Of a DNA stretch of 64,000 nt, positions 3,501-16,790 are shown piece after piece. Location of the stretch: IMG/VR virus record IMGVR_UViG_3300017728_000002, positions 1-64,000 of that record. One strand, given 5' to 3'. The notes under the pieces are model-generated. The model was given only the letters and a program-made list of their open reading frames with translations, ran no database searches and was not told the origin of the DNA. Position 1 is the first letter of the stretch. Every line of letters starts with the position of its first letter. The stretch is from a virus. The position numbers and the translations under genes were made by a program.

Positions 3501-5413
3501 TATTTTTCCCAGGCGTTTGCTGTAGTTGTATCGGCTTTGAGTAAGCCGTTGGTGATGATGGACTTGCCTGCTGCCTCCATATGGACAGTGATACGCTTGG
3601 AGTAGTGGGATATGCGATCAGTCTTGACGATAAAGTCAATTTGATCATGAACCACCATCACCATTTGTATGTCAGGGTCGCCTTGAAATTCTTGTCTGCA
3701 TCTGATCATTGCTTCTTTGGTCATGTCTCCTGCAGTTCCTTGAATGGGAGTGTTGCGAGACATGCGGTCAATCTTTCCTAGTTCTACTTTGGCTGTAGCG
3801 CGCCCTTTCCATTCCGGGAAGTAGCGAATGCGCTTGTACGGATCCATGGTACGGATGTAGCCCTTCTTCTTTCCGTCAGTTGCATTGCCGTCGAGGTATG
3901 CTTTGATGGAAGGAAAGACTTTGAAGTACTGCTGGATTAGTTCTTCTGCTTCTTTGACGTCTATCTGTAGCTGTGCCGAGAGCTTATTGGGTCCCATGCC
4001 GTAGGCCAGACCGAAGTTGATGCTCTTGACGGCTGTCCTTAAGGTTTTGTGTTTGGGACAGCTGCACTTTTGTTTGCTCTCAACGTACTCGCACCCGGGT
4101 CCCGCAGCTGCTCTCCACTCATCACCGTAGACGAGATCCGCACAGACTGAGTGAAGGTCTTCTCCTCTTTCAAGCGCGGCGAGCCAAACAGGATCTTGCG
4201 AACCATACGCGATAATGCAGAGTTCTTGAGACGAGAAGTCCGACGAGATGTACGACCACCCTTCAGGGCAGATAAAACAGTTGCGATATTCATTGTTGCT
4301 AGGTATTTGTTGCATGTTGGGACTGGCACTGCTGACCCGTCCCGTTCTAAGAATTTGTTGAAAGCGTGTGTGGACTTTGCCATCTGACTTGACGTATTTG
4401 TTAAGCCACTCCTCGCCAAATGCAGAAGAGAGCTTGGCACTTTCTCGATAGCTGATGTACATATCGATTAAGTCATGATCTGACCGGTGTGCCGTAGCCA
4501 AGAACTTGGTGTCGCAGTTCTCAAGCTTTGGAATAACAGTCTGCAGGATCGGCAGCACTTGCGCAGGGCTAGACCAATTGATGTCTACTGAAGCATTTAA
4601 GTCTTCTTCAGCAGTTCCAAATAGGGTAGTTTGATATGCGTGTGGTGCAAACCCAGCAAAAGTTGGATCTCGTAAGATGATGCCGTCCATGCATGCACTG
4701 AACATAAGTGCCTTAAGCTCTTGTGTACGTGCCAAAGCTGCCCAACCTTCAGTATCTACTAGCATGCCGTTGTACTCGATGTCACCGAATGCCAGGCAAG
4801 CTCCGTTTTCCAGCTTTGCACAATGCAGCAAATCACTTTGCTTTAGGTGTGCAATCTGTCCAAGTCGTACTTGTTCTAGGTATTGAACGTCAGCTGCTGC
4901 GTACAGCAATTGATCATACGTGAATTCAGTACTGTTGAAGTTGATGAAGCTGGTTTGCTGTGCTTTGGAGATTTCATTGCCTGTGTAGCGTTGGATTACG
5001 CCACTGAGCTTGTAAAATCCTTTCGGTACAACTTCACCATTGTGCAAAAGCTTTTCAATGAGCATGGTGTCCCACACGTTGTTGAGCACCACCCCTGCTT
5101 TCTTCAAAAACTTGTAGTCAAACACTGCGTTGTGCAAGAGCTTCATGCGCTTGTCAGTGAGCAACACTCCAATCTCTGGGTACATCGTTTGACGTACATC
5201 AAAGATGACCTGGTCGGTGGCGTTGCCCACTTGCACAAGCAGCAAAGAGTCTTCAATAAAGTCTAACCCAGTAGTCTCGCAGTCCAGTTGTAGAAAAGGA
5301 CTTTGACTCAAGACATCTAGGGCTTGGCTTGCAGTGATGTGTGTGATTTGACCTTGGTAGTCAAGTCTGTTTTGGGCAGTTACCAAGTAAATCATAGAGG
5401 AACCGAGTTCCAT
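3500..5413 (-). CDS. polA: Family A DNA polymerase with 3'-5' exonuclease domain
   Basis: Exo motifs LDCETTG, HNAVFD, YAAAD; polymerase motifs TGRVSSASPNMQQIP, DFSSQEL, KSINFGLAYG, NTPIQGTAGD, VHDQ. Confidence 0.97.
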   Translation of the reverse strand: MELGSSMIYLVTAQNRLDYQGQITHITASQALDVLSQSPFLQLDCETTGLDFIEDSLLLVQVGNATDQVIFDVRQTMYPEIGVLLTDKRMKLLHNAVFDYKFLKKAGVVLNNVWDTMLIEKLLHNGEVVPKGFYKLSGVIQRYTGNEISKAQQTSFINFNSTEFTYDQLLYAAADVQYLEQVRLGQIAHLKQSDLLHCAKLENGACLAFGDIEYNGMLVDTEGWAALARTQELKALMFSACMDGIILRDPTFAGFAPHAYQTTLFGTAEEDLNASVDINWSSPAQVLPILQTVIPKLENCDTKFLATAHRSDHDLIDMYISYRESAKLSSAFGEEWLNKYVKSDGKVHTRFQQILRTGRVSSASPNMQQIPSNNEYRNCFICPEGWSYISSDFSSQELCIIAYGSQDPVWLAALERGEDLHSVCADLVYGDEWRAAAGPGCEYVESKQKCSCPKHKTLRTAVKSINFGLAYGMGPNKLSAQLQIDVKEAEELIQQYFKVFPSIKAYLDGNATDGKKKGYIRTMDPYKRIRYFPEWKGRATAKVELGKIDRMSRNTPIQGTAGDMTKEAMIRCRQEFQGDPDIQMVMVVHDQIDFIVKTDRISHYSKRITVHMEAAGKSIITNGLLKADTTTANAWEK

Positions 5414-7972: not shown

Positions 7973-8197
7973 TTAGAGAGTTGTGTCTATTTGAAAGGCT
8001 GACACAGCCGTGTAGAGAGTTGCTATCATTTCTTCATCGCGAAACACATAAAATGCTTCGTGAATCTGCTGCTGATAGCGCGCAGGGAGGGTGCCAGTGA
8101 GGAATTCGTAACGCAGTTGATTGGATGGTGACAGGAATAGTAAAAAGTCACCTCGGTTGATAGCGGCGTTCAATTGCTTTGGCTTTCTCAAGTTCAT
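7973..8197 (-). CDS. Hypothetical protein (74 aa)
   Basis: ORF in a tightly packed minus-strand operon. Confidence 0.55.
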   Translation of the reverse strand: MNLRKPKQLNAAINRGDFLLFLSPSNQLRYEFLTGTLPARYQQQIHEAFYVFRDEEMIATLYTAVSAFQIDTTL

Positions 8198-8498
8198 CTT
8201 CTGTAAGAGTTAGTATGCGTATATGGGTTTGCTTTATGAGGTCCTGGCAAAGTGCGCAGTCCTCATATTGTTCTGTTTCTAGGTAAGCTTCAATGGCATG
8301 CTTGAGCGCCCAAGGCCATTGAGTGATTGAGTATTCGACGCTGAATGGGTCGCTTAAAGTCAACACGTGGATGTTGTTCTTTAAGCACTGTTGTACACCT
8401 TTGACTACGTACTGGATCCACTTGGTGCGGAGCCGCTGAGCAGTCTTAGGTTTAGGAGCATCTTGCTGATCGTCGTGATCAGGACTTAGAGTTTCCAT
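8148..8498 (-). CDS. Hypothetical protein with UVR-like (UvrB/UvrC) motif
   Basis: AIEAYLETEQYEDCALCQDLI resembles the UVR coiled-coil motif (A...E.YE.AA..RD.I). Confidence 0.6.
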   Translation of the reverse strand: METLSPDHDDQQDAPKPKTAQRLRTKWIQYVVKGVQQCLKNNIHVLTLSDPFSVEYSITQWPWALKHAIEAYLETEQYEDCALCQDLIKQTHIRILTLTEDELEKAKAIERRYQPR

Positions 8499-8991
8499 GG
8501 TTGATGTCAGATTCCGCTACATTCAAAGCATCCTCGAGAACCTGTACCGTAAAGAGCTTGCGCTGTTGTGGGTCGTTGGTAGCAGGAGCTTCAGACTGTT
8601 CCCACAGATCAAGGTCATCTTCGGTCAAGTCTGGTGGAGGCGGAGGTGGAGGAGAGTGCTTGAGAGACTCTATCTCTGCTTCTAATGCTGCTATGGCTCT
8701 GTGACTGAGTTCAAGATGATGCTCTAAGTCTTGGCCTGTTTCTAGCAAGCCATCGATAGAGTTCTTTAAGTCACGCTTGACAGCAATATGAAGCCGACCT
8801 TCCTTACGGATGGTGTTCAGGTCTTTGCGAAGCTTCTTGTTGACCTCGGAGAGCTCATTGATGTAGTCATCAATAGCTACGTAGCCGTCAGACTCCGCTT
8901 TAACGCGTTGCCGGTGTGCGAAATATGAAGCTGTTGCAGCTAGAATGACGCAAATGGACAAGATGATGCCCAAGTAAAACATGTTAATCAT
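8479..8991 (-). CDS. Membrane-anchored coiled-coil protein with poly-Pro
   Basis: N-terminal TM segment, heptad region, PPPPPPP run. Confidence 0.7.
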   Translation of the reverse strand: MINMFYLGIILSICVILAATASYFAHRQRVKAESDGYVAIDDYINELSEVNKKLRKDLNTIRKEGRLHIAVKRDLKNSIDGLLETGQDLEHHLELSHRAIAALEAEIESLKHSPPPPPPPDLTEDDLDLWEQSEAPATNDPQQRKLFTVQVLEDALNVAESDINHGNSKS

Positions 8992-9205
8992 GGTGTAAAG
9001 AATTAGAGAGTTTTAGTGTTTGAATGTTTATGCCTTGTGCTGTGGCATTAGGCTCAATACGGAACTCGTTGAACATGTACTGTCCGACGATGTCCTTAGC
9101 TTCAGTTGGGTCGGTAGCCCATACTATTAAACCGGTGGGGAGATTGTTTGTGATGATTGAATAAGCCTGCTTAGCAGACCGAATGCGTGTAGAGAGTAGA
9201 GACAT
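8984..9205 (-). CDS. Hypothetical early protein
   Basis: Likely start MSLLSTR at 9205, just downstream of the promoter motif at 9243-9255. Confidence 0.6.
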   Translation of the reverse strand: MSLLSTRIRSAKQAYSIITNNLPTGLIVWATDPTEAKDIVGQYMFNEFRIEPNATAQGINIQTLKLSNSLHHD

Positions 9206-9259
9206 GGTGTAGAGAAATGAAGGAACGCTACCCCACACCATAGTCTTCTTTTTACGATA

Positions 9260-10490
9260 TGGCGCGCATAGCGTATCGGGTGCTACTCAAAGGCAGCTAC
9301 ATTGTTTTTGCACCCTTATACAAGGGCTGTTCATGAGGAGTGTAAAAGGGGACGCCTTTGCGCCCCCTTCCACCTAACGACTTCGACCAATGACGACGAA
9401 GCCTACCTTTACCATGAGGGTGGAGAAAGAAGTAACTAAGCTATCAACACACCTATAGGGAGCTATCCTATAGTAACCTCGTGGTATACTGTGTGTCTTG
9501 CATGTGCACATACTGCTCTCCCAGTGACGTAAGCCCTGTTGTTATTGGAAAGCATACTTAGTTACTTCATTTGTATCTGTCGTAGCGTGCCTCGTCAGGT
9601 TTGCTACTAGTATTTCTAAGGTCTTCACCATTAAATAGATTTAAGCACATGCGTCCATGCACCGAGACGGTCAGTTATCTAAGCTGTTATCATTAGCTTG
9701 GTCACTAAATCCGGTTGTGTGACTCGCGGTCGTCAACCCGCCCAACAATGTCTATTCTACTTTGGTTGAAGAGGCCGATGTTGGACTGCCCCTGATGCTG
9801 TATGTAAAGGCAGCACGGCGAAACACCGCACTATATCTTCTATCAGTACTGCGTAGAGTACATCGTTGTTTCTCAGAGCTGCTAATCCTTAGGTTTGAAT
9901 AGAGCTATCTATTCCTAACTAGCATAACGTAAAACGATTGAAGACTGCCTATTCATGTTCCTTCAGCATTTGTGCGGGAGAGTGTACTGTGTCCGTAGAC
10001 GTCATAAACAGCTACACTCTCCCTAACCTGGTATACGTCAGGCTGACGTAGCAATCGAATAGATTCAGACATGAGAAGCGATTGCACCTCACATGTCCTA
10101 ATAGATAATGCACCCGAAGGCGACTTTTAGAATATGGACTGAATTGGATAACAAGGCACAGTCAAACCCCGTTTTTATAGACTTACACTATCAACACGCC
10201 TTCGAGTGATCAACTCTCCGTACCTATAATGGCAAACCCCTACTTTATCGGAGCTCCTGTCATGTCTTGCATCTAGAATACTGCTGGTCTTGGCTATATC
10301 CAGCACGTGTAAGTCCTGCCTTGTAGTAAGGCAGTTGTCGACGCAACCTCTGAATGACTTTAGAGAGTCAAACAGAGGCCACTTGTACGTTCAGGTACCA
10401 TTAGGTGATGGTTAATTTGGCTAACATCACCGACAAACCAAGAGGTGGCATAGCCTCTTATGCGTGTTTAAGTCCTGTCTAGACTACTCT
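9260..10490 (-). ncRNA. Candidate large structured non-coding RNA (or cluster of structured RNAs), family unrecognised
   Basis: ~1.2 kb with no ORF >=60 aa on either strand. More than 15 inverted-repeat stems (e.g. 9429-9440/9557-9568, 12 bp; 9976-9986/10013-10023, 11 bp), two pseudoknots and repeated motifs. Strand is inferred from arm orientation and a C.A mismatch that becomes G.U on the minus strand. Confidence 0.6.
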
Positions 10491-10507
10491 CAGTTGACTG
10501 ACTCTAA

Positions 10508-11200
10508 TCAGTCGGTTGAGAGCGTGGGGTACTCATCGGAGTCACTAACATGGTCAGTGTCTTGCCGATGGGAATCCTCTTTATCAAGTTCAGCTTGAAG
10601 CTGTCTATTTAGCGCCTCGTCACGTTCTGCTTCGACTGCGTTGTCTAAGCGGTGCTCCATCATAGCTTCGTTAAGCAGCCTGTCCTCCTCAAGGGCCTCA
10701 GCAACAGAAAGAGTAGTATCCTCATAGAAGGGAGTAACATTACCTTGCCTATCAAGAGACAAACAAAACCTATCATGCATCTTGTCTATAGTAGAGGAAG
10801 GAACATCATGGACAGAGATACCATCATGTCTGTTCTCCATGATGATGGTATGAATACGAAACTGCTGATCAGGTAGAAGCTCTTCATTGACTCGATTAGT
10901 GAAGTCAACGTAAGGCCACATCTCTTCAGTAGTGGTATTGGTGTTGTCTACAATGATGATACCGTCTGTATGCTTCATGTGCTTCATTTCATGAAGAGCA
11001 CAGATGAAGTCAGCTTGAGCTTGGGTATGGCAAGCAGCAAGCTTGGTAGCATCAAAGCAGTAGTTGCCAAAGTCATCAGTCATGAAGGTGTCAGCACTGA
11101 CGACACGCACGAAGCCCGGTGTGGACATGGCAACTAAGGTTTGAGCGAATGTGGATTTGCCTGAGCCAGGTAAACCGCGTAGGATGATTACTGTATTCAT
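10508..11200 (-). CDS. P-loop NTPase / polynucleotide-kinase-like (AAA_33, N4BP2-type) with acidic tail
   Basis: ILRGLPGSGKST Walker A, SAD.F, IIVDNTN, H.VP...I..M motifs. Confidence 0.85.
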   Translation of the reverse strand: MNTVIILRGLPGSGKSTFAQTLVAMSTPGFVRVVSADTFMTDDFGNYCFDATKLAACHTQAQADFICALHEMKHMKHTDGIIIVDNTNTTTEEMWPYVDFTNRVNEELLPDQQFRIHTIIMENRHDGISVHDVPSSTIDKMHDRFCLSLDRQGNVTPFYEDTTLSVAEALEEDRLLNEAMMEHRLDNAVEAERDEALNRQLQAELDKEDSHRQDTDHVSDSDEYPTLSTD

Positions 11201-11594
11201 ATGTTAAGGGTTAGAGAGTTGTATCTGAATGGGTATTGTATGGTGTAGAATTGTAATGCAGCATGTCAAAGAGCGGGTTGCTAAGTTGCATAATACAGAG
11301 TATTGTTTGGCTTGAGGTGCTTGCTAAGAAGGGGTGAAACAGGGTGTATATTGCTGCAACACACTCACAACCAATCAGTTAGGATGTGCATAACTCGTTA
11401 GCTTAAGCGGTATAGGCTTCTGTATAAGACTGCACCCCCCAAGCAAAGTCTTCTTTTAAAACCAGCAGTGCTTGGCAGCGTTTGGTAGTGCTTGTCAGGG
11501 CTTGCAGAGTAGTGCTTGCTAGGCCTTGCATGGGCTGGGCAGGGCTGAGCCTGGGCTACGCGAGGCTGGCTGTGTTCTTTTTAGCAACGCTAAA

Positions 11595-11620
11595 CAGGCC
11601 ACCCGGTTAGGGGTGACCTG
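11595..11620 (-). terminator. Hairpin after ORF 11648-11986
   Basis: caggccaccc-ggttag-gggtgacctg inverted repeat. Confidence 0.55.
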
Positions 11621-11647
11621 CGTAACGTGGCAAGAGCCGGAAGAACC

Positions 11648-11986
11648 TCAATCCGGCAAATCTATTGTTTTGACCTCGCGTTCATCAAACCACAAACGGT
11701 AATCAGAACCATCCTCGGCCGCAAATGCAGTGCACTGGCTGAGAATCCTCTTTTTACCGAGGGCTGTGTGAACCGGGTTGTTCAGGTCCAACATAGAAAT
11801 CCTCACAAGTTCCTCACTCACTACACCATTCTCTCCTGTTACGGAGAATCTAGCATAGCTCGTGCTCTTTGTGGGGTCTTTTGTGTTGACCTTCTCGCAA
11901 AAGTCTATCACAGTGGTAGGACAATGGCGTGTTGGAACCTTGGCAGTAGGCTGCTGGTCCACTTGGGGAGCAATTTGGTCGCTCAT
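11648..11986 (-). CDS. Hypothetical early protein
   Basis: Start revised to MSDQ (11986, TACCATG context) because promoter motifs at 12043 and 12091 lie inside the longer track ORF. Confidence 0.65.
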   Translation of the reverse strand: MSDQIAPQVDQQPTAKVPTRHCPTTVIDFCEKVNTKDPTKSTSYARFSVTGENGVVSEELVRISMLDLNNPVHTALGKKRILSQCTAFAAEDGSDYRLWFDEREVKTIDLPD

Positions 11987-12177
11987 GGTAGTTGGGTGTG
12001 CCATTGGGATAGGTTTGCCCAAAGCACACGCTCCTGCACAGAAAAGTCTTCTTTTTAGACATCCAGTTACGTCTTTGAGAATCAAGCCACGTCTTCTTTT
12101 TACAACAGGTCGTCTTTGCCTCCATTGGGCTGGCGCCCGTGGTTGCTGCTCGGCTCTTAGCACGAGTGTGCTGCTTA

Positions 12178-12203
12178 CCCCCACCACCCGAAGGTGGCAG
12201 GGG
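12178..12203 (-). terminator. UUCG-tetraloop hairpin after ORF 12242-12526
   Basis: Minus strand CCACC-TTCG-GGTGG. Confidence 0.55.
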
Positions 12204-12241
12204 ATCGCGGCTACGAACATGGCAATCACTCTAATACGATT

Positions 12242-12526
12242 TTAGTTCACCCTCACGTACTGTAAAGTCTCACTATTCTTGATACGCAGCTTCAGAATAT
12301 CCAAGTCCTTATTGGAGATGGTCGCAGACCACATAGTATCACTAAGGGTATCATAGTCCTCATTCTGAATGACGCGCTCAATCTCAAGCTTTACAATTTG
12401 TGTACCTGCCAGCTTAGTACAAGAAACACTCCAAGAGGCTTTACTGGGAAGCATTGACTGCAACATGCCAATCTGATGTATGACATCGTCATGGGTTACA
12501 TGGTCTATTTCGTTGTTGCTCTTCAT
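12242..12526 (-). CDS. Hypothetical early protein (94 aa)
   Basis: Preceded by the motif at 12572, TACCATG start context, followed by a hairpin. Confidence 0.7.
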   Translation of the reverse strand: MKSNNEIDHVTHDDVIHQIGMLQSMLPSKASWSVSCTKLAGTQIVKLEIERVIQNEDYDTLSDTMWSATISNKDLDILKLRIKNSETLQYVRVN

Positions 12527-12603
12527 GGTAAAAGGTTAACAGGAGCGACGTTGCCCCTGCTATCCCCGAGCAAAGCCATCTTTTTAGACATCCTATAAAG
12601 GGA

Positions 12604-12635
12604 GGAAACACAGGGAGCCGAAGCCCCCTGTTTCC
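12604..12635 (-). terminator. UUCG-tetraloop hairpin after ORF 12651-12869
   Basis: Minus strand GGAAACAGGGGGC-TTCG-GCTCCCTGTGTTTCC. Confidence 0.6.
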
Positions 12636-12650
12636 ATGTGTGTTGTACAA

Positions 12651-12869
12651 TTAGCGAAATGGGATCACGCGGTCAACGATGCGGCAAAGCATCAGACCGA
12701 CGTGGCCGTAGTGGTGTTCCAGGTTGTCCTGGATGTGACCGCACATCTCGGCGTAAGCCTCAAAGTGCTTACCGCCGGAGTGGTAGTCGCGATGCATGGC
12801 GCGATGCATGCGTGCGTACTCTTGGAGACCGCGGTACAGGTTGGTGATATGTTTAATCATAGCTAGCAC
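12651..12869 (-). CDS. Hypothetical His-rich early protein (~70 aa)
   Basis: Lies between the motif at 12875 and the hairpin at 12604. Confidence 0.6.
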   Translation of the reverse strand: MLAMIKHITNLYRGLQEYARMHRAMHRDYHSGGKHFEAYAEMCGHIQDNLEHHYGHVGLMLCRIVDRVIPFR

Positions 12870-12943
12870 CTATTAAAGCCTTCTTTTTAGACACCCTACA
12901 ACGTCTTTGCTGTGTTTGCTACGCACTCTCCATCCCACCCAAG

Positions 12944-12975
12944 CTGCCACTGACATGGGTTACATGTCAGGGCAG
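12944..12975 (-). terminator. Hairpin after ORF 12992-13318
   Basis: ctgcc-a-ctgacatg-ggtta-catgtcag-ggcag. Confidence 0.55.
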
Positions 12976-12991
12976 TCAAGGGCAGAATCAT

Positions 12992-13318
12992 TCAGGTCAA
13001 GCCCATGCCAAGCTCGGCACACGGCTGTGGCTCTGCTTCCTCTGGCTCAACTTCGACTACTTCAGCCGGAGCAAAGAAGATTCCACGCTTCCGCAGATTA
13101 GGGATGACAAATAGCATCATCATGTTGTCGCACTCGAGAAGACGCTTACCACGTCCCAAAGCAGGATGGTGTGCGTAAATCTCTGTGCGACGTGTGGTCA
13201 TGTTCGTGACACACTGCAAACTGTGAAAGCTTCCGCGCAAAACAGTATCTGCATGCTCCTTAGCTGTGGCCATTTTTTGTTCAAGGGGCAGGCTCTTCCC
13301 GGTTACATCTTCACTCAT
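12992..13318 (-). CDS. Hypothetical early protein
   Basis: Likely start MSEDV at 13318 (TTTTACCATG context) after the motif at 13368. Confidence 0.65.
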   Translation of the reverse strand: MSEDVTGKSLPLEQKMATAKEHADTVLRGSFHSLQCVTNMTTRRTEIYAHHPALGRGKRLLECDNMMMLFVIPNLRKRGIFFAPAEVVEVEPEEAEPQPCAELGMGLT

Positions 13319-13453
13319 GGTAAAAGAGTTGGCGCAAGCAACAGTGCTCACACACGCTCATCTCCATAAAAGCCATCTTTTTAGACACCCTCATAGGTGT
13401 CTTTGCTCTTCAGCCTCAGCACCCAAGTCGTATGGGAGCCGGCAGCACCCAAT

Positions 13454-15716: not shown

Positions 15717-16790
15717 ATGCTTACGGTGTCAGAACCTTCTAAAGGAAAGCGTTGGAAAATTCGGATTACGGATATGGAAACCAAGAAATCCGTGGTTTTT
15801 GTGAGTGGCAGAGTCGTAGGTGACACCACCCGCCCCCAAGATTTAAGCGAAGACGGCAAGGAGAAGTACTTCTACTGGCTCAAACGCGCGCTAGAAACTC
15901 GTATTTCCACCGGCTGGACTCCTAAACAGTTTGCAGGAAAGCCTAAAAAGTCTGTTCAACGCACAGCCTGGGAGCTTGCAGTGGATCAAACTTTGAAGAC
16001 GATCAAAGGATTAGATCCTTGGTATGTGAAGCAAGTCCATCGACACGTAAATAGGATGATGGAAGACTTTGAAACGTTTCCTTCTCAAGACGAGTTTACT
16101 CGATTCATCAAAAAGCGTTTCAATACAGGCCGAACAACCATGCACATGGCCAAGCGTCGCTTCAGTGCGTTCTTCACCCATATGATCGATATGGAGTTGA
16201 TTGACTACAATCCTGCAGAGAAGATCAAAGTCAGAACTCCGCAACCCACACGCAACCATGTTTACACCAAACAACAGCTCAGGGATCTCTTTGCTTATTT
16301 AAAAGAGCACAGGCCTACCTTATATGTATGCTGCTACCTCACTTACAAACTTTTCCTACGGCCCCACAAAGAGATTCGGCTTTTGAGGTGGGAATACTTT
16401 GATTGGGACAACGAAACAGTAAACATCCCTCCTAAGTATTCTAAGAACCGCAAGCCTCGTACTCTCCCATTAGACCAGGAGACCATATATGAGTTAAAGT
16501 GGTGGGGAGTAGAAACCGAAGGCTTTGTTATGGGAAGGGAGTTCAACCCAGACTACTTTAAAACTCAGTGGGGCAGGTTACGCAAGACATATAAGCTTGA
16601 ACCCTACCAAACATTGTATAGTGTTCGGCACACTGCAGCTTGTTTGTTCTACAACGAACACAAGAACATCCATCAGTTAATGTTGGTTATGGGGCATGCC
16701 AGTACAGCCAGTACGTTGAATTACTTAAAAAATGCTCCTGTCCAACAGGCCGGCGTAGATGAGCTGAAAGTATTGAGCTTAAAGGAATAG
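15717..16790 (+). CDS. int: Tyrosine recombinase / phage integrase
   Basis: Catalytic R (LRPHKEI), K (SKNRK), YSVRHTAA, MGH and Y; core-binding NPA motif; 357 aa. Confidence 0.92.
   Translation: MLTVSEPSKGKRWKIRITDMETKKSVVFVSGRVVGDTTRPQDLSEDGKEKYFYWLKRALETRISTGWTPKQFAGKPKKSVQRTAWELAVDQTLKTIKGLDPWYVKQVHRHVNRMMEDFETFPSQDEFTRFIKKRFNTGRTTMHMAKRRFSAFFTHMIDMELIDYNPAEKIKVRTPQPTRNHVYTKQQLRDLFAYLKEHRPTLYVCCYLTYKLFLRPHKEIRLLRWEYFDWDNETVNIPPKYSKNRKPRTLPLDQETIYELKWWGVETEGFVMGREFNPDYFKTQWGRLRKTYKLEPYQTLYSVRHTAACLFYNEHKNIHQLMLVMGHASTASTLNYLKNAPVQQAGVDELKVLSLKE

Follow-up and report, generated by a model that had tools for sequence, protein, structure and literature searches.

An ORF-free stretch in a crAss-like phage genome is probably an island of small structured RNA genes

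A gene-free gap of ~1.27 kb between two early genes of a crAss-like phage is probably a non-tRNA counterpart of the phage tRNA island, made up of at least six independent genes for small structured RNAs. The gap lies at 9242-10507 of the window, by which we mean the whole stretch of 64,000 nt that was analysed, taken from a complete viral genome of 85.5 kb with terminal repeats that was recovered from seawater or viral metagenomes (IMG/VR record IMGVR_UViG_3300017728_000002). The proposed modules, named A, C', B, D2, D1 and C in 5' to 3' order on the RNA strand, would be separate RNA genes of ~140-210 nt each on the minus strand (Table 1). The island is co-oriented with its flanking early genes, ends at a terminator-like hairpin and occupies the site where some related phages keep tRNA genes.

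Table 1. Coordinates in the window of the island modules and neighbouring features, listed 5' to 3' on the RNA strand
Feature	Start	End	Strand	Description
P-loop kinase-like gene	10508	11200	-	Upstream of island; AAA_33 / polynucleotide-kinase-like; phrog_2071 ATPase (2e-26), phrog_505 polynucleotide kinase (3e-10), PF13671
Module A	10342	10525	-	~180 nt; predicted series of ~7 hairpins; 5' end overlaps last codons and stop of kinase gene
Module C'	10178	10321	-	Diverged paralogue of C; predicted closing stem GACUUACAC/GUGUAAGUC
Module B	9965	10175	-	Conserved 5' hairpin (15-nt loop), variable middle, long 3' hairpin
Module D2	9804	9955	-	~150 nt; predicted closing stem AAGGCAG/CUGCCUU
Module D1	9590	9798	-	~205 nt; predicted to be closed by UCAGG/CCUGA
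Module C	9427	9570	-	~140 nt; P1, P2, P3, P4 with small hairpin plus P6
Terminator-like hairpin	9343	9372	-	GC-rich hairpin followed by UUUU; probable 3' end of island transcript
85-aa gene	8984	9241	-	Downstream of island; shares 45% identity with the gene that follows the array of L042

The crAss-like affiliation of the phage, which was part of the original prediction, is borne out by its terminase, portal and capsid, all three of which were recognised by their PHROGs; the capsid is ~33% identical to capsids of crAss-like and Flavobacterium phages. The genome also contains a gene at 15717-16790 on the plus strand that matches the tyrosine integrases (phrog_1, E 1e-30), at the level of the family only. 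The gap had been described as the lone kilobase-scale ORF-free stretch, and indeed nowhere else in the 64-kb window is a 75-aa ORF lacking for 500 nt or more. Under table 11 none of the ORFs in its 1266 nt exceeds 46 aa, and no frame is open across the gap when TAG is read as glutamine, TGA as tryptophan (table 4) or TAA as glutamine. Hidden coding via recoded stops was therefore rejected, the gap being closed under all four genetic codes tried. Both flanking genes are on the minus strand, and the upstream one is a P-loop kinase as the original prediction had it. Direct repeats of 30-40 nt at 11430-13390 and 9225-9254 encode on the minus strand the N-termini (M/V-S-K-K-K/M-A/T...) of small early proteins that form a family of paralogues. 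In the copy at the 85-aa gene ATA replaces the start codon and there is one additional base, and the gene starts at an internal ATG. This repeat family was considered as the island promoter and rejected, since in frame it is the N-terminus of these paralogous proteins. Tandem or dispersed internal repeats were likewise rejected as the basis of the region, as there are only matches of 12-18 nt that come from the paralogy of C and C' and from shared loop motifs.

Searches against known sequences and RNA families agree with the earlier view that the region carries no familiar RNA signature. No DNA match to the gap was found among GenBank phages, nothing in the window attains the gathering score of an Rfam family, and there is no covariance-model match to group I or group II introns, RNase P, riboswitches or other Rfam families. 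ARAGORN finds neither tRNA nor tmRNA in the window and the Rfam tRNA model is also negative, while the same tools do detect tRNAs in related phages. When 9100-10650 was searched at E values up to 10, only chance-level matches and one weak match to the HDV-like ribozyme drz-agam-1 (RF01787) were obtained. The latter, of 24.8 bits, lies at 9366-9442 on the minus strand, directly 3' of module C, and its P1 strand is the 3' strand of the closing stem of that module. It resembles HDV-like ribozymes in having a plausible P2, P3 and P4, but by eye it differs from them in having no P1.1 (there is no GG after P1) and a long P3-P1 joiner. A ribozyme at this site was rejected, as the score falls short of the threshold of 37 bits and the match has no homologue in related phages.

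The folding tests support a structured minus strand while tempering the initial description of its pairing. All ten of the stems first listed are 100% Watson-Crick. Compared with dinucleotide shuffles per strand, the 1266 nt give z = -5.57 on the minus strand and z = -3.06 on the plus strand, and seven coding controls of the same length range from +1.64 to -3.78 against such shuffles; judged by this range, the minus strand exceeds all the controls by a moderate margin, and the plus strand does not stand out. The statement that the stretch is almost continuously paired was too strong, since only some 200-nt windows beat their shuffles (~9200-9600, 9900-10100 and 10200-10600) and D1 on its own gives z = -0.36.

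The case for separate genes comes from comparison with related phages. IMG/VR contigs were retrieved by means of the DNA polymerase gene, which is 4 kb from the gap. Comparison by nhmmer with one of these, L003, showed that only two pieces of the gap are held in common, and patterns drawn from conserved stretches then found L041/L042 (from metagenomes), L043/L044, L047/L048 and L049. The pattern TGAACGTACAAGTGGCC had its only true match in IMG/VR in the contig of L003 itself, four others being due to chance. Two cellular matches to a module C pattern (L045, L046) were also due to chance, with no homology beyond the pattern, and this search of cellular genomes gave no evidence of a host origin for the modules. 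Gene order is kept in L002 and L003 from the polymerase to the gene immediately downstream of the gap, and then breaks. Both of these phages carry an ORF-poor stretch at the syntenic place, and tRNA genes lie in or beside the gap of these relatives, on the strand of the genes.

Read 5' to 3' on the RNA strand, the window phage has A, C', B, D2, D1 and C followed by a unique tail of 185 nt (9242-9426), for which none of the loci has a homologue. In L003 the order is tRNA-Leu, tRNA-Arg, A, B; in L041/L042 it is C, A, B; in L047 it is C, D2, ~215 nt of other sequence, D1; in L048 it is B, D2; and in L049 it is C, D2, D1. L043/L044 have C alone in a divergent intergenic region. C' occurs between A and B only in the window phage, these two modules being abutted in L003 and L041, and C-type modules occupy four different positions across the loci. 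In L002, whose polymerase is the closest to that of the window phage (70%), the gap resembles none of the modules. The ORF-poor stretch of L002 (3569-4391) is of 620-820 nt, with a tRNA-Leu gene ~360 nt upstream. The ~215 nt of unrelated sequence between D2 and D1 of L047 (2140-2354) may be a further module family. Other ORF-free gaps, of 1.2-1.8 kb, were seen in the more distant relatives L009 (4715-5923), L010 (2329-3494), L011 (5535-7368) and L015 (1536-3031), situated 2.5-5 kb upstream of the polymerase (35-45% identical), and there is conservation of such gaps among L006, L009, L010 and L011.

This distribution bears directly on the original prediction of one novel RNA class of ~1.2 kb. 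What stands is that the stretch does not code for protein, has structure on the minus strand and matches no Rfam family. A single RNA class is unsupported: the parts are found separately and in differing subsets among related phages, and C changes position. Each of the modules C, C', D2 and D1 has its own closing terminal stem (a short one is predicted by RNAalifold for A), and L002 has none of the modules. The rival explanation closest to the initial one takes the island as a whole for one functional transcript, with domains that fold apart and work together in the manner of GOLLD. A, B, D2 and D1 keep the same order in every locus mapped, which would fit a single modular transcript with optional domains, and the island has no internal terminator while its minus strand as a whole gives a z of -5.6. 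Set against this, the full set of modules is in no other phage among the loci mapped, A-B and D2-D1 occur in different phages, C can stand alone, and loci that lack a partner module have nothing to match the long-range pairs of the minimum free energy fold. Weighing both sides, we regard one large RNA as unlikely.

The modules are better conserved than the genes near them. Identity between phages is 79-96% for modules, as against ~65-78% for coding DNA when the same phages are paired; the highest values are those of D1 and D2 (93-96%), and C is 85-90% identical. This high identity could be due to a recent horizontal exchange and not to constraint. If it does reflect constraint, action in trans on conserved machinery would explain a conservation that is near to that of tRNAs.

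Module C provides the firmest evidence for a structured RNA gene. Four copies folded separately give the same plan, with a P1 of 10-13 bp, an invariant UGCA in the loop of P3 and a P6 with an invariant UAGCU, and the copy in the window has z = -5.0. A covariance model built from two copies (R1) matches six distinct strong copies with 66-169 bits, which fall into three sequence types. In these six copies, whose alignment was fitted to the model and so favours its structure, 98.8% of the cells are paired compared to 27-47% with slid partners, and 14 of the 49 pairs are compensated by changes on both sides, a count reached by one of 500 shuffles. The covariation score is 0.354 versus 0.144 in shuffles (0 of 500 reach it). 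The sequence of the closing stem P1 differs between types and lineages and its complementarity is kept. Such covariation beyond the controls is strong evidence that C is a structured RNA gene. Matches in L009 (22 bits) and L011 (17 bits) were excluded from the count, as a long closing stem inflates their scores; the gaps of these two phages hold a weak C-like closed module, the closing stem of which shares AUAACUACA with L043.

Module C' shares the four-way plan of C by eye and by alignment to the model, which matches it over its full length (25 bits, E 3.5e-5). Its own minimum free energy fold recovers only P2 and P3, and with z +0.87 it folds no better than shuffles. The loops of C at 9494-9497 and 9460-9464 are self-complementary (UGCA, and UAGCU or, in L051/L052, UAGCUA), and the hairpin loop of D2 at 9903-9910 has the same GAUAGCUC motif as is found in C; C adjoins D2 in L047 and L049. 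These shared loops could be kissing contacts or a common protein site. In a single large RNA, self-complementary loops common to C and D2 could mediate contacts between domains. They also enter a further possibility, that the modules are subunits of an RNA-only assembly of several small RNAs, a split, mix-and-match counterpart of the ROOL/GOLLD nanocage. In such an assembly, UGCA in P3 of C, UAGCU in P6 of C and the GAUAGCUC loop of D2 would act as kissing contacts, and phages would exchange the parts as cassettes. We consider this a long shot.

Covariation among homologues is weaker for the remaining modules. Module A is ~80% identical to L003 4549-4728 and L041 1011-1190, its RNAalifold structure has 54 pairs of which seven are compensated (three distinct sequences), and 200-nt windows here reach a z of -5.6. 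Module B has homologues at L003 4738-4947, L041 1200-1419 and L048 2973-3097, with 41 pairs and again seven compensated in three distinct sequences; its 3' hairpin is the 11-bp stem 9976-9986/10013-10023 already listed in the original prediction. In L003 (~4900-4965) the 3' hairpin of B runs into six U and looks like a terminator; the hairpin has no such U-run in W (the window phage) and L041. D2 is 93-96% identical in L047 and L048 and is present in L049 too, with 48 predicted pairs, two compensated and two broken, among four distinct sequences and a z of about -2. D1 is 95% identical in L047 and also present in L049, with 54 predicted pairs, two compensated and three broken, among three distinct sequences. 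As D1 has no excess of folding stability over shuffles, its case rests on conservation and not on an established fold. Taken over A, B, D2 and D1, the covariation (2-7 compensated pairs each, from 2-4 distinct sequences) is suggestive only.

A different class of explanation holds that the inverted repeats matter as DNA, the modules being mobile or recombinogenic cassettes, an origin or some other site. Near-identity between diverged phages together with shifting position does suggest horizontal movement, and C, C', D1 and D2 are flanked by terminal inverted repeats. The terminal repeats of C vary by lineage yet stay complementary, unlike the ends of transposons, and one-sided changes preserve G.U pairs on one strand only. 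One pair in P6 of C reads U-A, U.G and C-G on the minus strand, and the natural variant T>C at 9913 turns the minus-strand pair into G.U and its plus-strand equivalent into A.C. Across the modelled structures pairing falls from 97-99% as given to 84-91% on the opposite strand, a comparison that is biased in favour of the minus strand, for which the structures were predicted. Iterons, an AT-rich block and a skew switch are all absent, as is any transposase or endonuclease ORF. A role at the DNA level is to us the least probable of the explanations considered.

The modules could also act in cis within the mRNA of the early operon, as leaders, stabilisers or signals for processing. In L043/L044, 15 nt separate the end of C from the start codon of a gene that opens a transcription unit, module A begins within the 3' end of the kinase ORF, and in every locus the modules are co-oriented with the flanking genes. 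Against this, the adjacent genes vary among loci, the one that lies downstream of C in L043 being upstream of the array in L047 and L049, and the modules are therefore not the leaders of any one gene. A run of six elements within 1.1 kb, all of them better conserved than the genes, would also be unlike leaders. We judge such a role improbable. Both leaders acting in cis and cassettes acting as DNA are thus less likely than an island of RNA genes. The suggested partnership of the RNA with the adjacent kinase is likewise unsupported, a homologue of the kinase being near the array in only two of seven distinct phage loci (the window phage and L048). A search based on the kinase found no related loci in IMG/VR, its homologues are generic AAA_33 proteins, and a word search of a protein database gave no relatives of a neighbouring 162-aa protein.

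A transcript was sought in metatranscriptomes, and island sequence from D2 and D1 does turn up in contigs from RNA-type libraries. Contigs from four studies were compared with 8000-12000, bearing in mind that some DNA can be present in an RNA library. Their cover of the gap extends over 9577-10154 and, in three of the four runs, is confined to 9577-9971, with loose contig ends at 9577 and 9971, the module borders with C and B. One metatranscriptome contig of 151 nt (9807-9957) coincides with D2, contigs of this kind giving neither ends, strand nor level. The flanking genes are covered in just one run, which is probably DNA. A, C' and C are uncovered, and lack of cover is uninformative. These contigs are a weak hint of stable RNA from the island, and they show that the D modules occur in other sequence contexts as well. 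The probable 3' end of the island transcript is the terminator-like hairpin of Table 1; the fold of 9385-9325 on the minus strand has a 13-bp stem, -26.2 kcal/mol and z -3.5. The consensus terminator scan requires at least five T and missed this hairpin for that reason, and it found no terminator-like site inside the island. Sigma-70 scans for a promoter of the island gave nothing useful.

The known large RNAs of phages offer one point of comparison. GOLLD (RF01998) and ROOL (RF03087) are phage RNAs of unknown function, rich in helices and kissing loops, that are often found beside tRNA islands; GOLLD has a variable half and a linker that can carry tRNAs, a context that would suit a single large RNA here. 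The island is like them in being encoded by a phage, near the tRNA genes of relatives, and in total length. It differs in that neither model matches it, whether at gathering score in the window or at E values up to 10 in 9100-10650, which speaks against a large modular RNA of this kind. GOLLD and ROOL also have one conserved architecture of at least 500 nt, unlike the island, whose parts are separate, vary in subset and, in the case of C, shift in position. A second comparison is with phage T4, in which RNAC and RNAD are encoded among the clustered tRNA genes and are released from precursors that they share with the tRNAs. Similarly, the modules are on the same strand and at the locus of the tRNA-Leu and tRNA-Arg genes of relatives. 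The likeness is one of organisation and of location by synteny, and a relation in sequence or structure is not to be expected. RNAC and RNAD are small non-tRNA RNAs of a lytic phage and their function is unknown (PMC9697503). The island departs from the T4 case in consisting of six modules with no tRNA and in the exchange of modules between phages, and processing of its transcript is something we infer. Its organisation would thus seem closer to that of T4 RNAC and RNAD than to that of GOLLD or ROOL, which it would resemble in context. The RNA families of the modules appear to be new, while phage small RNAs beside tRNA genes are of a known kind.

A possible pathway for the island of small RNA genes would begin with one precursor transcript shared with the upstream early genes. 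Host RNases that process tRNA and rRNA could then cut this precursor beside the closing stems to give discrete stable RNAs, and these RNAs may act in trans on conserved machinery of the host or of the phage. The proposal of processing and of action in trans is based on the self-closure of the modules, their independent inheritance and a level of conservation like that of tRNAs.

crAss-like phages are among the most abundant phages known, and we know of no structured RNA genes that have been established in them. The modules described here would represent at least five RNA families absent from Rfam that occur together, are better kept than nearby genes and are swapped between marine phages as tRNA genes are. 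They are a testable set of candidates for the use of non-tRNA small RNAs by phages in early infection. Some kilobase-scale candidates for "giant RNA" in phages may also resolve into arrays of small units once relatives are compared.
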